The notes beneath the pieces were generated by a model. It searched no databases, was not told the DNA's origin, and saw only the letters and a list, made by a program, of their open reading frames with translations. A stretch of DNA of 63,093 nt, the filler included, from Reticulomyxa filosa (taxonomy: Eukaryota; Protista; Foraminifera), in NCBI GenBank assembly GCA_000512085.1. It is 17 parts of 17 records of this genome, joined end to end, with 100 filler letters (N's around TTAATTAATTAA, not from the genome) between each part and the next. Parts side by side here need not be neighbours in the genome. Positions count along the whole stretch, not along the records: positions 13,803 to 18,696 come from ASPP01011072.1; 16 more parts are not named here. One strand, given 5' to 3'. Shown piece after piece: positions 13,697-46,527 of this stretch. The position numbers and the translations under genes are program-made. Position 1 is the stretch's first letter, and each line of letters begins with the position of its first letter.

Positions 13697-13870
13697 TAGA
13701 CGNNNNNNNNNNNNNNNNNNNNNNNNNNNNNNNNNNNNNNNNNNNNTTAATTAATTAANNNNNNNNNNNNNNNNNNNNNNNNNNNNNNNNNNNNNNNNNN
13801 NNCTTTTTTTTTTTTTTTTTAAAAAAAAAAGGACATTATTTTCATACCAAAAAAAAAAAAAAAAAATAAG

Positions 13871-14491
13871 TTAACAAATAACAAATGGATAAATAATAAT
13901 AACAATAATAATAAACTTGACAAACAACACCATACAAAAACCACTGATAACGATATCCCAAATGGCGACGAGAATGACGGCCCAATAGGGAGAATGAAAT
14001 GTACATGAATCAAAGACGGTGGACAAACCGTCGATAAAGAACACGCTGATTGCTAGCAACATCAATGCAAAGAGTGCAATGGCGATATGGACAGAGCGTA
14101 GAAAAGTCTTGGAATAGCGGAAGGAGGACCCTTTAAACACCATCTCCACTCGCAGCACAAACACGTTGTACAAAAAAAAACGTCCGAGGATAAAACACCA
14201 CGTCAGTGCTTGGATGCGCACGTAACACAGCTTGCGTGACATATTAAACTCGATCACCGATAGTACACTTACCATCCCAAATGTGACAAACGCCAATATC
14301 GTGCATGCGGGTAACAGTCGGTTATTTGTCCGCATTTGCGAGTGTCCACCCGTCGAACCCGCTAGTCGAGAACACTGATTACGTATCGTTTGACAATAGA
14401 TCGCCAACAGCGAAAATATTACCGTCATTGACAAACTCACTGTTATCTGGTACGACAAGCGTACCATTGGATCTGACCAACTTATTTTCAT
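13871..14491 (-). CDS. Multi-pass membrane protein (7TM/GPCR-like family), TM1-TM5, 3'-truncated
   Basis: Five hydrophobic helices, Cys in the presumptive extracellular loops, and an LRVEMVFKGSSFRYS motif shared with the 19125-20269 protein. Confidence 0.7.
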   Translation of the reverse strand: MKISWSDPMVRLSYQITVSLSMTVIFSLLAIYCQTIRNQCSRLAGSTGGHSQMRTNNRLLPACTILAFVTFGMVSVLSVIEFNMSRKLCYVRIQALTWCFILGRFFLYNVFVLRVEMVFKGSSFRYSKTFLRSVHIAIALFALMLLAISVFFIDGLSTVFDSCTFHSPYWAVILVAIWDIVISGFCMVLFVKFIIIVIIIYPFVIC

Positions 14492-15201
14492 TCTTTTTTT
14501 TTTTTGGACGGAATTAAACAAAATTCTTTTAGAAAAATCTTTTCTTTCAAAGTTGGGTTTACAAAAAAATATCTCAACATAGAAATGAACTTTTAGACTA
14601 TCTATTGTTTCTGCTGTCCTTACAATTAATTTGTTTCACTTTTATCAAGGGAGCAGAACCAAAGAAATAGTAACTAAAACAATATTGTATATTTTCTTTT
14701 TTAATTAAGTTTATCCTAAAAAAATGAATAGTATTATCGAATTATAACACCAGTTGAAACTATAATTATCATTCTACTTTTTTTTCATGCTAAAATTTCA
14801 TCGCTTTTAGAACATTTGATAAAATAATGAATTATGTGTGATTAAAGAGACGAACACTTTTATCCTCTAATCTTGATAATATTATCAATAATTCCTGATT
14901 TATTTAATTTATATTGATACTATAAAATATAATTTTTTGCTCTTTGAATGTAATCAATTGTTTGGTTGTTTCAACATCCCACAATAAATTTTTACAGCAA
15001 GTTTAGAACACAAATATCTGTCATTCCAATATCCCAAAACAAATGAATTTGTCATTTGATGAAGGAAAAATGACATTATCGTAAAAATTTCACACATTCA
15101 TAACTTGAATATCCATTAAGTTATGTCAACGCAAAAAATTCATTCCGTTTCGAAAAAAATATTTTAAAAATAATCTCAAGCTTTACTATTTTTTGCCTCA
15201 A

Positions 15202-17970
15202 ATGGAACAACTTCAAGTCTTGTTCAGCACAATTGAAGCAGAGATTGTTTCAAAAACCTGGAATTTATGTAATGAAAACTTGGATGAGACAAGCATGGTC
15301 CTGAGCTTCATCGCGGAGAATAAGTTAAAACTAGAAATATTTTTTAAAACTGATATTAATAACACATTAATTATAGCACAACTTCCCAACAGCAATTGTA
15401 TTTAATGGAGTTATTAGAAAAATTTGATAATATTGATAAAACGACTATTTTGCGAACATGGAAACAATCTAATCAAATTTATTACGATACAATTGTAAAA
15501 TTAAGGAAGGCTGTTTCTACTTACAACATCAATAAGTTAAAAATTACCACAAAAAAAAAAAAAAAATTATTCGAGAATAAGCGTTATTTATGTATACTTA
15601 GCATTAAAGAAAGGAATGAAATGAAAATTATGAGAGAAGTATGTTTGTATATATTGTGGAATATAATATCTTATCCCACAAATATGAAATATCGTCAAAT
15701 CAGCACAAATTCATTTTATCAAATTTTAAAACGTAAGTGTGATTCATTGAGTGTAAATGTGGATGAATTATTTGTAGATGTGGAATATTTTTTAAAAGAG
15801 TGGGGCTTTCAAAAAGGAAATGATTGTAATTGGTATTATCATGAAGACATTCAATTGCTATTGTTATGGAAATGTTATCAATCATGGATTTACGAACAGC
15901 CAATGTATTATTTGTTTATCTTTGAATTGTCATATCTATAAATAACAAGTGTTTACAAATAAAAACATATTAAAACAAAGTTACAAAACAAGAGTGAATA
16001 TTCCAGGAACAATATGTATGTTATCAAACGGAAAATGGAAAAAATATGAGGTTATATTTGATTATGAATATCGAAGAATTGTGTTATTGAATGGAAAAAT
16101 TTAAAAGTAAAAACATTACAAGTTGGAAATCCAAAGAGATCGTCATTGGAATTCAATGTTCATATTCAATGGTATAATGATTGTTCTGAAATTCAAACAA
16201 GTTGTATCAAATACTGTTGTCTCATTCTTGACCATTCTTGGCATTTACGCACAATAAACTACTTTGACAGAGAACACTTATCGAATTGTTGTTCAGTTGA
16301 GATTTGTTAATTACATTCAATACATTTTATTTGTATTTTTTTTTTTTACATTCATTTATGAATAGGAGTTTAATTCATTTCAAGCTATTCATAACAGAGA
16401 TAATGTAAATATATTTAAAGAGCCGTTGAACCCTTATTCAATGACTTTGAAACAAGGACTTCAATGCTTCAAAGAGAAATTGCAAATAAGACAACAGTCT
16501 CTGACTGGAGAAGATGAACTGGTACGTTTCAACTGTAATTTTGATAAGTGTAAGCCACCAATTCCACTCGATATCAATGAAGATATATTATTGAATGATA
16601 TCTACAAACATCTCCCTCATTATCCAAATATACAAGTTAATTGGAATATATTAAGCTTATTCGTGGTACCTTATAAACATACTATTTGCATTGAAAGAAC
16701 TGACGTACCAAAAAATATTATAAATGAAGATATTGTCAGTTTATCAAATCAAAAACCTAAGTTTAACCCATTATTGTATGAGTGTGACTTTCATAAATTT
16801 AAAATTATTGAAGATACTGTAACTCGAATTTATACATCAAGTAAAAACGAATTGAAATTATTATTACACGAAGTGATAAAAAATGGCTATTTGAGTGATT
16901 TAATCACATGTCAATACAAAAATAATAAAAGAGAGGAAAAACAACGTTATGAAAATATCAAACAACAAATTCATTATAAAGACTCCAATGCAGATGAATT
17001 GATATTAAATGATAAAATATTAACAATAATCAATGAATTGGAGACATTGTATCATGAAGACATTCATAAACAAATAGGATATCCACTTTCATTAGAAAAT
17101 ATTTGTGCAATTTTATTGTATTGTGGAAAAGCATGTAATGTTGAATTTAGTTATGATCAGATACATTTTCAACATTTTAAATGGAAATCTTTGGATAAAT
17201 GTTTGCAAAGTGCTATTATGATTTTGCATACACATGAACGAAGAGAAGAAGAGAACATTGAATTATATTGTGGATTGAAAGGAGTAAGATTGAAGAATGA
17301 AAAAGAAATCAAAGCAGGATTTTTCATAAGTCATATAAGTACTTCTGATGATTTGCAAGTTGCAAAGATGTTTAGAACTGATCAAGGTTGTATTTTACAT
17401 TTTCACTCTTCTATGAGACGAGCAAATCTAATTGACAGCTGTGATGTATCGTGGATATCTCCATACAAACATGAACGTGAAATTTTGTTTGCAAGAACAA
17501 GAACAGAGTTCAATTTTGATGAGAAAAAACATAAAGAACTAATTGCATGGAATGCAAAAATAGAGAGTGAAGATAAAAAAACACAAATGATATTATTAAC
17601 ATGGGCAATGCATGATCAATTCATCCAACAAACTGTGAATATTAGCAAGATTTGGAATCATTCCATTGACTTAAATCTCATTCACATGATTTTATTCAAT
17701 ACTCAAGGAAATGTGGATCTAACTATTCAGTGTTTAGCTACATTTAAAGAATGGAGAATGCAACCAAACAATAAAAAAAAATACGAAGAAATAAAAAATG
17801 AATTTTTAGAAAGACGTTGCTGTAATCATCATATCAATTTTTTTTTTATTTTTTTTGAAAAAGAAGTTCCAGAGTACACATCCATTGAACTAGCCATACT
17901 ATTTACTCTCTTAAATGGATTACCGTTTGAGAAATTCGAAGAGAGTGAAAGGACAACGAATAAAAAATGA
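15202..17970 (+). CDS. Multidomain ADP-ribosyltransferase-family protein (CUE-like x2, PUB-like, PH-like, ART, CUE/UBA-like); multi-exon, with a 1-nt frameshift at the A5 run 16095-16099
   Basis: ART (R-S-E clade) motifs LYCGL...FISHISTSDDLQVAKMF...GCILHF...DVSWISPYKHEREILF. PUB-like NIISYPTNMKYRQI...LKEWGF. CUE-like LQVLFSTIEAEIVSKTWNLCNENLDETSMVL and IDLNLIHMILFNTQGNVDLTIQCL. Short GT-AG introns join the ORF pieces in frame. Confidence 0.75.
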
Positions 17971-18471
17971 AAATTGTACGTTATTTGTTGTATTACAATT
18001 ATAGACAAGTAGTAAGAATTATAAATGCAAGCCAATTACAGAATTCAATATTGTTTTTTTTTCTTTGTCCAAGTGGTTGTCTCTGTCAAAGTATATTTTT
18101 TGTATTGATTGGTAAAGAAAAAAATATTTATAAGCACCAAAAAACATTCATACCAATATAAAAAAAAATTACATTTTTATGTATACAAAAGAATTTTGGA
18201 AATAATGTGTAACTTTCAAAAGGTTAAACACTGAATCAGAAAACACCTTTTGTCATGTTCAAAACGAATATCTTTTGAATCTATAATGGTCTTGCGTCAC
18301 AACTTCGTTTAAAATTTTTTTGCGCCAAGGATATCTGGAATGTCCCTGAAAACTACTAAAATTTGATAGCCTTGATTCGAAACAAAAAATATTTCAAGCA
18401 TGATTTTGTGTTGGATTACATACAAACTTCAAACAAAGTATTTCAAATTTTGTTTTTTATTGATTATTTAT

Positions 18472-18696
18472 TTAAAAAAACCACCATCTTGATGAAGACG
18501 AAGTTTCTCCCCAAATATTAATGGATCTATCAAATGAACCATAACACAAATTATAGCCACAGTCCTTCTTTGTATTTTCATTGTTTTTTTCATTCTTTTT
18601 CAATGGTATAAATTTAATACATGTTATAAAATCCTTTCCATTGATCACATAAAATTCCTTCTTATTTGATCGAATATCCCAAAAACGAATTGTATT
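18472..18696 (-). CDS. WD40-repeat protein, C-terminal fragment
   Basis: The minus strand reads NTIRFWDIRSNK...CIKF...NLCYGSFDRSINIWG with a stop at 18472. This is the same terminal blade as the other WD40 paralogs in the window. Confidence 0.8.
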   Translation of the reverse strand, partial: NTIRFWDIRSNKKEFYVINGKDFITCIKFIPLKKNEKNNENTKKDCGYNLCYGSFDRSINIWGETSSSSRWWFF

Positions 18697-19124: not shown

Positions 19125-20269
19125 ATGTCAGAGCTCTTAGCGACGTATATCATTTATTGGGCAGCGACAGTAGTGATACTACTGCTGTTGCTAGTGCATG
19201 TGGTGAATTGGTGTCGTGAAGATACGGAGATGGACAACCGGCAAAACCCATTTGCGTCCTGTGGTTGGTCATTAGGGAGGAATGTGACGTACAGCAGGAT
19301 AATAAATGTGTTGGTGGTGTGTGCAACGTAAGTGGTGTAATATCAATGTTGCCAGTGACATTGTGTCACTACGGGACGGAAAAGGCATGTTTTGATTCAG
19401 GTGAGACGTTGTTGTTGCCATGGATAGCGTATTGTTTCCACAAATACTTTATCTACGAATGTTTGCTGACGAGATTGCAAGCTTCCTTTGCAGGAAGTAC
19501 ATATGCATACAAAGGGTCGTTGCCAATGGCGTTACATGCAATTTTCTTTGTGGCCACAGCGGTGCATTTGTTATGGTTTTTCTTTTTAAAGGACGCTATT
19601 ATCGATACGTACGCACATCAATTGGGCATTGGTAAGCGAAAGCAGTTTTATTTTCCACCGTTGATATGTCTGGGCGTGGTGGACATAGTGCTCAATGCCT
19701 TGCTGGTGTATTGTTTCTCCAAGCCACTGATCAAGTTGACACGACAACAGCACTGGTATATTGTGGGCAAAGAATTCGAACTGACAGCGACGACGACGGC
19801 GACAATGACTGATGGCTTGAGCAATACAAATACCGGCGCTAATGCGAGCAATAATAATGCTCACCGAACAACAGAAACGGAAGCCACAATGGCGGTTCAT
19901 GCATCCCAGGAATCCAAGTCGCATGTCCATGGTACCAGTGAAATGTCATTGAAATCTTTGGGTCGCGAACCATCAGCCAAGACCAAAGAATTTATGGAAA
20001 ATTCAACGCTGTATGATTTGTTGGTACGTGTCAATGTCATCACGTGGACTATGGTACTCGTTACTACGTTCAATTTGCTCATGGTATTCTTCCAAGTCAC
20101 TAGTATCATCTTCGCCATTGACATTGTCCTCAATTGCCTCGGGCTTATGTTCGCCTTTCGGAAATACAGACCTGCCTACCAGGTTATATGTTGTTGTTGC
20201 CATCATACTCTTAGTCAGATCGGTGCCCGTTTCCTGTTTTTAGTCGACCTGGAACCGGTTTCTTCCTGA
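19125..20269 (+). CDS. 7TM/GPCR-like membrane protein with an apparent 1-nt frameshift near 19328
   Basis: Two overlapping ORFs (19125-19331 and 19265-20269) together give about 7 hydrophobic helices, a long Thr/Asn-rich third intracellular loop, and a helix-8-like segment followed by CCCC (palmitoylation-like). Confidence 0.7.
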
Positions 20270-44666: not shown

Positions 44667-46527
44667 TTGTTCCAACGACGAAATAGCGATGCCAATTCCA
44701 ATGGCAGTATATCACAAATCCAATTATTTGAAAGTAAAACCAACATCGTATCGGATCGAGTGAGTCCGGCGAAAAAGGACAGCGTGGACGAAAGCACATC
44801 ATCGAAGAACACAAGCAACGGAGGAAAGAGAAAGAAACAGCAATATATCGGCGTGATGAAAAGCGAGCGACAAGAATGGATACGAATGCTAACATTATTG
44901 CAAGAGCAGCTGCGCATTGTCCAGAGTCAAAATTACCGATTGCATCGAAATTGTAAGGAGTTTGCATACAACAAAAAAGTGGGCCAAGCGCAATTGACTC
45001 ATCCGTTCAAAGTATTGAATATGCACGAATTGAACGAGAAAATTACCCAAGTCATTTGCGGGCGCTGTTGCGACTTGCATCAGCAAATGGCCCAAAAGAT
45101 TGCCGAAATCGAGCAAATTGGATTTGGGCAAAGGCGCATTCCAAAGTCACGCAACAATTGTCCAGTCATTGTGACCATAATGCAAGTGGTAGTAATGTGC
45201 TTGCCATTTTCGAGCGAAGAAGAGGGGTCCGATTGGATTGTAATCCTACGGCAATTTGCTTCAGTTGATCGATAATAGCTTGGATATTAGTTTAAGCGAT
45301 ATCGCGGGACAAAGGCGGATTGGCGATGACAACCAACCAACCAACCAACTGTCTTGGACCGAACAACAAGGGACAGAGCACAACGGATAAAAGCCATTCC
45401 AGCAACAGCGAAGGAGATTGCTTCACTCGCTCTTTCGTTCGGTTGAATTATCTCACCCACGTCACGAGGTGGTTCTTCAAACTTCTCTTTCAATTCATAT
45501 ACACTACTTAAATAGGGTCTTTTTGTGTAATATGTGTGTTTCAGCATTCGGTGGCCAATTCCTTTGTTCTGGATCATATGACAAAACAGTTCGTATATGT
45601 GATGTAGAGACCAGCAAACAAATTCAATTATTCAGTGGCCATTCGAGCCACGTGATGGGTGTGAAATTTTCACCATATCATTATCATCACAATCGTCGAA
45701 ATGTCATTTGTTCTTCATCAGATGATAAAACTATTCGTTTTTGGGACGTCAAAGATAAACAACCATTAAAAGTGTTCAATGAACACACTGCTGCGGTTTG
45801 CAGCATTGCATTTTCGCCATTTGGATGATCGACATTTATGTTCTGGGTCATTTGATAAAACTATTCGTTTGTGGGATGTTGAGACATTCAAGTTATTGTA
45901 TGTTTTCAAAGAACATACAGAAACTGTTTGGTATTTGGCTTTTTCGTCATCGCAAGGCAATAAAAATAATGGCGTTAGTATGAGTTGCAGTCCTGGACGC
46001 ACCCTTTTGTTCTGGATCATATGATAAAACTATTCGAATATGGGATATTGAAACCAACAGAGAATTGACTGAATTCAAAGGACATGGTTTGCGGTGAGCA
46101 GTGTAAAATATGGGTCAAATGAATTAAAAAACATTGGTGGTGCAAATACTATATTATCAGAATCATGGGATCAAACTGTTCGTTTGTGGGATGCTCGATC
46201 CAGTCTGCAAACTCACGTGTTCAAGGGACACAAAGATTGGGTGTATGCGTCGAATATTCACCTCTTGTGGCAAACAACAGCAAAATTGGTGGTGGAAATG
46301 TCATATGTTCTGGGTCAAAGGATAATACTATTCGCTTTTGGGACATTCGATCAAGTAAGACTTTGGATGTAATCAAAATTGATGAAGGAGAAAATGGAAT
46401 GCGTTGTCTTAAATTTTTATCACCGAAAACGAAAGAGGTGAAACGAAAAAGCAATGACGAACGTAATGGTAGCATTCATCTCTGCTGTGGTTCAGACAAA
46501 GGCCCCATTCGTGTTTGGGAGCAATGA
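44667..46527 (+). pseudogene. WD40-repeat gene with several frameshifts and stops (upstream coiled-coil ORF 44667-45275 probably belongs to it)
   Basis: WD40 blades (CSGSYDKTVRI, GHSSHVMGVKFSP, ICSSSDDKTIRFWD, SGSFDKTIRLWD, GSKDNTIRFWDIRS, GSDKGPIRVW) are spread over 3 frames with in-frame stops. Confidence 0.75.

Follow-up and report, generated by a model that had tools for sequence, protein, structure and literature searches.

In the ARTC class of ADP-ribosyltransferases (ARTs), the R-S-E clade, an arginine in strand beta-1 is treated as a defining feature, and the motif N-x-x-L-R in helix 3 is a contact to nicotinamide adenine dinucleotide (NAD). Eukaryotic ARTCs characterised to date are secreted or luminal (PMC10789625). 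Here we describe a gene of the foraminifer Reticulomyxa filosa, a giant amoeba of fresh water, in whose predicted structure an ARTC fold without this arginine is joined to domains that resemble parts of the ubiquitin system. It lies at positions 15202–17970 (+) of the window, the whole stretch of 63,093 nucleotides analysed from assembly GCA_000512085.1, and corresponds to the public protein RFI_15148, to which its 534-residue last exon is 100% identical in a sequence match. A literature search on Reticulomyxa or foraminiferan ARTs, or on PUB, CUE and ART domains in combination, returned no description of the family or its architecture; the expansion may yet be mentioned in the paper on the R. 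filosa genome, in a 2015 review on how ARTs evolved, or in the supplements to either. In the paper found that joins Reticulomyxa with ADP-ribosyltransferases, the genus is mentioned only for PARPs.

We tentatively favour, with slightly more doubt than assurance, the reading that the product of this gene is cytosolic, likely active and part of an undescribed clade of arginine-less ARTs, and that it is likely recruited or gated by its ubiquitin-system-like domains. The arginine-less active site is as notable as the string of domains. R-S-E fails as a membership test for the clade, which may still work like an ARTC.

An ARTC fold without the beta-1 arginine

An AlphaFold2 model was made with 86 sequences on RFI_15148, which is mis-spliced in its PH region, and reached a predicted local distance difference test score (pLDDT) of 87.9 and a predicted template modelling score (pTM) of 0.89. 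Compared with 48,161 solved chains, its ART domain matched ART2.2 (Z 14.0, root-mean-square deviation (rmsd) 3.3, 202 residues aligned), HopU1 (Z 13.5), and Tre1 and XopAI (Z 12.9). Pfam family PF01129 matched exon 5 at 22.9 bits, the cut-off being 22.3. By both the fold search and Pfam, the split beta-sheet fold of ARTs is present. Strand beta-1 reads Y-C-G, and an alignment through the profile of the relatives (E 0.11) places its Cys on the Arg of V-Y-R-G in ART2.2, a register with which the fold match agrees. The triad of the gene is C-S-E instead of R-S-E. The helix-3 motif is also altered, to S..QI in R. filosa and C..QR in the relatives, in a register that rests on a weak alignment to ExoT.

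In a sequence search, 83 of 88 homologue clusters were R. filosa gene models; this is not a copy count, as many models are partial and the ART core is covered by about 60. When 1.84 billion representatives were searched with a profile, 674 clusters (50% identity) reached E ≤0.001, and 62 distant relatives were picked from the best 150 of these and from the homologue search. At the beta-1 position, the R. filosa copies (n = 63) have Cys in 54, Ser in four, Tyr in three, and Arg and Phe in one each. The distant, mostly foraminiferan relatives (n = 61) have Ser in 39, Thr in 21, Cys in one and Arg in none. Because Arg is found in a single R. filosa copy and in no relative, its loss is clade-wide and old. 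The triad Ser is kept in 62/62 distant relatives and both Glu of E-x-E in 61/61. Among the R. filosa copies that cover all sites, S-T-S and E-x-E are intact in 41 of 54, including the gene studied, and they are also kept in the divergent branches P0034, P0039 and P0051. Judged from these alignments, invariant catalytic residues in a clade that lost the beta-1 Arg early argue for function.

A five-exon gene with a frameshift

The gene sits on its own contig of 4,894 bp (window 13803–18696). Since the window is a concatenation of 17 small contigs with N44-spacer-N44 linkers (16 spacer pairs), adjacency across linkers is artificial and neighbours beyond this contig are uninformative. Comparison with paralogs gave five exons and four GT-AG introns of 53–76 nt with 15–20% GC. 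The features are as follows.

15202–15323 (+): exon 1; first CUE/UBA-like three-helix unit, residues 1–40 (model helices 2–7, 13–22 and 27–39, pLDDT ~95)
15324–15376 (+): intron 1, 53 nt, GT-AG
15377–15535 (+): exon 2; second CUE/UBA-like unit, residues ~44–92, homologous to the first
15536–15601 (+): intron 2, 66 nt, in frame; the public model keeps it as a disordered stretch (pLDDT <50)
15602–15904 (+): exon 3; PUB-fold domain with a non-canonical pocket (I-x-x-N-x9-Y, without K/RxxN) for the PUB-interacting motif (PIM)
15905–15980 (+): intron 3, 76 nt, GT-AG
15981–16295 (+): exon 4; PH-fold domain, broken by the frameshift (best Z 8.0, rmsd 2.6, 80 aligned)
16095–16099 (+): A5 run, site of a one-base shift in reading frame
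16296–16365 (+): intron 4, 70 nt, GT-AG
16366–17970 (+): exon 5
16366–16683 (+): likely ubiquitin-like beta-grasp domain at the start of exon 5
16762–17610 (+): ARTC-fold ADP-ribosyltransferase domain, from the PF01129 match and the fold match to ART2.2
17266–17274 (+): beta-1 motif Y-C-G, with Cys (17269–17271) at the triad Arg position
17338–17346 (+): S-T-S motif
17473–17481 (+): E-R-E catalytic motif
17650–17763 (+): CUE/UBA-like helical unit 3, with weak homology to unit 1
17764–17970 (+): C-terminal helical unit and stop codon

As assembled, the spliced message reaches a stop after 235 residues, owing to the one-base shift at the A5 run. If an X is placed at that point, the frame stays open over 834 residues, and this reading outscores the public annotation in alignments against all six paralogs tried. 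The frames on either side of the break match the intact paralog P0103 at 76% and 77% identity. We rejected the public model at two places: it retains intron 2, and it bypasses the frameshift with a false intron (16051–16100) that removes the most conserved PH motif. That motif was found in 33 of 34 PH-containing proteins, the sole exception being the annotation itself. All nine segments occur in order in six of the 83 R. filosa models, and eight more are one segment short, which supports a single gene as far as the paralog models go. The protein has no signal peptide and no membrane segment (maximum hydropathy 1.19).

Domains around the ART

The domain encoded by exon 3 has the PUB winged-helix fold, with matches to the PUB domains of PNGase (Z 10.8, rmsd 2.1, 87 aligned) and UBXD1 (Z 8.4), and the same fold was found in a paralog model (Z 9.9). 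The Pfam PUB score of 21.3 bits is below the cut-off of 34.3. PIM binding requires YxxN(x)9Y and K/RxxN, and SPATA2, in which the first Tyr is missing, does not bind PIMs (PMC6995525, PMC4017264). In the R. filosa family the first pocket Tyr is found in 0/49 (Ile in 41), the Asn in 46/49 and the second Tyr in 51/51; the basic position of K/RxxN is Asn in 29 and Ser in 18 of 53, with no conserved Asn two to three residues on. Canonical binding of the p97 tail by this domain is therefore unlikely, judging from its pocket residues. The PUB domain of PNGase has a second face, which binds ubiquitin or ubiquitin-like domains (PMC4017264).

Many PH folds matched residues 224–319 of the model (Z 6.8–8.0) despite the mis-splicing there. 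The basic beta-1/beta-2 motif of PH domains is their phosphoinositide motif; at this place the family studied reads C-M-L-x-N-G-K-W-K-x-Y, and the usual Arg is absent. Residues 320–412 matched a 128-residue chain of the U11 small nuclear ribonucleoprotein (Z 7.4, rmsd 2.7, 82 aligned), which we take to have a ubiquitin-like fold. In the full-length model their elements run strand-strand-helix-strand-helix-strand, which fits a beta-grasp, and the top Atlas neighbour is a ubiquitin-family cluster at a template modelling (TM) score of 0.46, below the naming threshold. This segment is likely a ubiquitin-like beta-grasp domain, as modelled.

The CUE identity of the three helical units is weakly supported. 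They are modelled as three-helix units with high pLDDT. Homology between units 1 and 2 has an HHalign probability of 95%, and that between units 3 and 1 one of 77%. Fold matches of a paralog N-terminus included the UBAP1 SOUBA domain (Z 6.3) and the EF-Ts N-terminus (Z 5.2). CUE domains need MFP and LL motifs (PMC6688830). At the MFP position, unit 1 of the gene has L-F-S and unit 2 K-F-D, and unit 3 has no FP; across the family, unit 1 has Phe in 28/28 and Pro in 17/28 (x-F-P), preceded mostly by a polar residue. The LL motif of helix 3 is represented by V-L in unit 1, with Leu in 26/26 family members. Pfam CUE gave no match on the protein studied and matched two of 86 family members at E ≤0.05 (best E 0.002). 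CUE clusters are among the Atlas neighbours of the units, below the naming threshold, and several paralogs carry the database name 'CUE domain-containing'. When the N-terminal profile, the exon 2–3 frame and a paralog were searched by sequence against the PDB, neither a CUE nor a PUB relative came up, and the fold searches listed no solved CUE domain, although small helical bundles are easily missed there. A complex prediction of residues 1–95 with ubiquitin (73/76 identical to PDB ubiquitin), made without an alignment, scored 0.00 and carries no weight for or against binding.

The three N-terminal domains of a paralog, folded alone, gave a pTM of 0.56 versus 0.89 for the full-length model. 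This difference suggests that the domains may pack together in a closed resting state.

A preliminary description made from the DNA alone had proposed a single large protein, obtained by GT-AG splicing and correction of one homopolymer frameshift, with the order CUE-CUE-PUB-PH-like-ART-CUE. The single protein is supported by the 834-residue reading of RFI_15148 and its better fit to the six paralogs, and the PUB fold and the PH fold of the beta-rich block are borne out. The domain string was largely right and is conserved in paralogs, but it lacked the likely beta-grasp domain between PH and ART. The ART had been placed in the R-S-E clade: its toxin/ARTC fold, S-T-S and E-R-E hold, and the Arg does not. 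The per-domain structural check proposed there recovered the ART and PUB folds. For the CUE units it gave three-helix bundles, of which the CUE assignment itself stands on weak ground.

A lineage-specific expansion among foraminiferan relatives

All 33 matches to the N-terminal 420 residues (lengths 467–1488) were from R. filosa, so the full architecture is known from this one species. A quick tree of 66 ART cores placed 32 R. filosa rows on one side of a branch with a Shimodaira–Hasegawa-like approximate likelihood ratio test (SH-aLRT) support of 95, and 31 of these on one with 97. The R. filosa copies thus appear to be a lineage-specific expansion. Among 21 distant relatives looked up were 11 from Bolivina argentea, three from Nonionella stella, one from R. 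filosa and one on a 945-bp contig labelled as a bacterial bin. In relatives from other foraminifers, a PH domain precedes the ART in 6/62 (E ≤0.01), a SAM domain does so in 1/62, and in one (P0165) a ubiquitin domain and a RanBP-type zinc finger stand before it; other modules were also seen ahead of the ART. P0085 has a weak UBA-like match (E 0.13) beside the ART. Two tandem ART modules were seen in P0086, P0129 and P0147.

Some paralog models have Kelch, WD40 or TPR tails; as possible gene-model fusions, these were not taken to be part of the architecture. A repetitive WD40 gene family is represented in the window by fragments at 18472–18696 (-), 45391–46527 (+) and 58837–59274 (-). The same family is appended to the paralog models P0091, P0093 and P0097, possibly as fusions or mobile neighbours.

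Of 185,579 prokaryote genomes searched by pattern, a single one gave a match. It is a Bacteroidota bin of 0.9 Mb, in which two open reading frames (ORFs) of 2,381 and 2,601 residues carry the foraminiferan-type Arg-less ART. In one of them the ART is followed by TPR, NACHT and pentapeptide repeats. The ORFs have bacterial-looking neighbours, flanking repeated genes of ~590 residues and hydrophobic N-termini, and their branch is long in the quick tree. They may be secreted NLR-like proteins of an intracellular bacterium. Ten pattern matches in viral contigs included no relative, and metagenome contigs gave one uninformative 1.5-kb fragment (33% identity over 80 residues).

Proposed mechanism and alternative explanations

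The observations to be accounted for are the gene model, the ART, PUB and PH folds, the residue pattern, the family expansion and the lack of a signal or membrane segment. We propose that the protein may be a cytosolic mono-ADP-ribosyltransferase that is still active, given the invariant Ser and E-x-E of the wider clade. Its NAD chemistry would survive with Cys, Ser or Thr at the position of the NAD-binding Arg. By the E-x-E rule, its acceptor would be arginine. According to the model, its accessory domains (CUE-like, PUB-fold, PH-fold and likely ubiquitin-like) would pack against the enzyme. They could bring it to membranes or to sites marked by ubiquitin, or gate it there; it is the resemblance of these folds to ubiquitin-system parts that suggests such recruitment or gating. 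A role in defence or signalling is likely. Defence is suggested by the family expansion, and conflict by the likely presence of some dead copies in it.

Several observations weigh against this proposal. In the ART family the beta-1 Arg positions NAD (PMC8120803), and the mammalian ARTC3 and ARTC4, with parts of the motif missing, have no activity (PMC10928986). Alignment to ART2.2 revealed no compensating basic residue in the ART domain; a conserved K/R six residues past beta-1 corresponds there to an Arg present in ART2.2 as well. The helix-3 Arg, kept in 58/60 relatives, is Ile in 42/57 R. filosa copies. Within R. filosa the catalytic columns are mid-ranked in conservation (E688 85, S641 116 and E686 135 of 269), and 15/57 copies lack at least one catalytic residue, with correlated losses (Fisher p 2e-6, uncorrected for kinship). 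The PUB domain is without the first Tyr and K/RxxN, the full MFP motif is absent from the CUE-like units, CUE domains can also bind non-ubiquitin partners or other folds (PMC6688830), and the gene copy in the assembly is frameshifted. Given intact S-T-S and E-x-E in most copies but middling conservation and joint loss in others, the R. filosa family likely mixes active and dead copies, at least by its residues. The main rival, which we find somewhat unlikely, is that the R. filosa branch would be a pseudo-enzyme family, an ART without productive NAD binding that serves as a scaffold or decoy (e.g. bait for bacterial effectors) in a compact multi-domain adaptor. Changes affect the two Arg positions that bind phosphate as well as the Asn of helix 3, the catalytic residues lie outside the most conserved columns and decay jointly, and ARTC3/4 are a precedent. 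Set against it are the 41 of 54 copies that retain S-T-S and E-x-E, long branches included, and a wider clade that keeps the catalytic residues invariant without the beta-1 Arg. We think it unlikely that the gene copy studied has recently become a pseudogene, whatever the function of its family. The premature stop from the exon 4 frameshift fits such decay, as does the fact that many family models are partial or split, but the shift lies within a homopolymer run, the remainder is open with splice sites and motifs intact, and both flanks are about equally close to the intact paralog. Homopolymer errors are also plausible in the draft assembly of R. filosa.

Two further explanations concern the reaction. 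The protein could be an NAD+ glycohydrolase instead of a transferase, that is, a gated NAD-depleting effector. An altered NAD site with a retained catalytic Glu would suit this, ARTC5 may be mainly a hydrolase (PMC10789625), and in the bacterial protein the Arg-less ART stands ahead of NACHT, the usual place of an effector domain. We nevertheless regard it as improbable, as the first Glu of E-x-E, which is tied to arginine acceptors, is invariant in all 61 relatives. The preliminary description had suggested an enzyme that would ADP-ribosylate ubiquitin, as SidE does at Arg42, or p97-bound substrates, with the PUB domain docking on the p97 tail. This is very improbable. Its attractions are a PUB fold nearest to those of PNGase and UBXD1, the order of PUB then beta-grasp, which recalls UBXD1 (model residues 118–416, rmsd 10.2), the E-x-E motif and the weak CUE resemblance. 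We found nothing pointing to ubiquitin or p97 as substrate, and the PUB pocket lacks two published determinants of p97-tail binding, with no K/R at the K/RxxN position and the same Tyr loss as SPATA2, which binds no PIM (PMC6995525). The analogy to SidE comes down to a shared fold: its Z of 8.6 is below that of many other ARTs, and the model leaves no segment the size of a phosphodiesterase.

To return to the favoured reading of an active, arginine-less ART, a wider scenario can be drawn, which we consider quite unlikely as a whole. Foraminifera would have a large intracellular ADP-ribosylation arm of ARTCs with an arginine-free NAD site, and Reticulomyxa would have made from it a ubiquitin-gated switch. 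Its CUE-like units, by sitting on the ubiquitin-like domain of the same protein, would keep it closed until ubiquitin chains on microbes or invaded vacuoles opened it, and dead paralogs would serve as decoys.

With hundreds of sequences in which Ser and E-x-E appear invariant without the Arg, the clade allows one to test directly how far the R-S-E NAD site can be rebuilt. In Reticulomyxa the architecture would amount to an ARTC of the cytosol linked with folds of the ubiquitin system, and its family would give access to cell-autonomous defence in Rhizaria, a little-known subject.

Other features of the window

Two multi-pass membrane frames, at 13871–14635 (-) and 19220–20269 (+), have by eye the look of seven-helix receptors; Pfam gave no family for either at E <0.1. 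The former is head to head with the ART gene on one contig. A long frame at 59275–61206 (-) resembles a dynein-related AAA+ protein, which from its motifs we take to be of the RNF213 type; RNF213 is an antibacterial ubiquitin ligase in animals. At 54001–56200, GC reaches 52% and frames resemble reverse-strand bacterial ribosomal RNA, possibly from a bacterial contaminant contig.

Comparison with known systems

The gene shares with the ARTC or R-S-E clade (ART2.2, HopU1, Tre1, ExoS/ExoT; PF01129) the fold, including the N-terminal helical lobe (Z 11.8–14.2), and S-T-S and E-x-E. It differs in the beta-1 Cys (Ser/Thr in relatives), in the altered helix-3 N..LR and in an identity of only 15–21%, and its product lacks a signal peptide and is embedded among six or more non-catalytic domains. 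With Legionella SidE/SdeA, whose mono-ADP-ribosyltransferase is not the closest ART, it shares the ART fold with E-x-E (Z 8.6); the phosphodiesterase domain is absent, the residues being taken up by other, smaller domains, and the gene studied is eukaryotic and contains introns.

PNGase, UBXD1 and SPATA2 have in common with the gene the PUB fold (PNGase Z 10.8, UBXD1 8.4), the pocket Asn and second Tyr, and a GF motif. As in UBXD1, PUB is followed by a likely beta-grasp, but in the gene a PH fold intervenes. SPATA2, which does not bind PIMs, likewise lacks the first pocket Tyr and K/RxxN. In PNGase and UBXD1 the PUB domain accompanies a glycanase or a UBX scaffold, whereas here it is fused to an ART. 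The CUE/UBA domains of Tollip, Vps9 and UBAP1 resemble the helical units in their three helices, the invariant Phe and the FP of 17/28 first units; the tandem units match UBAP1 SOUBA at Z 6.3, with CUE clusters among the Atlas neighbours. They differ in that the gene has L-F-S without the Met or hydrophobic residue before FP, and all matches are below confident thresholds. Closest in concept are the animal PARP10 and PARP9-DTX3L, where an intracellular ART is linked to ubiquitin recognition (UIM, DTX3L; PMC10789625). Those are H-Y-E (ARTD) enzymes, whereas the gene of R. filosa combines an ARTC fold with unrelated accessory domains.

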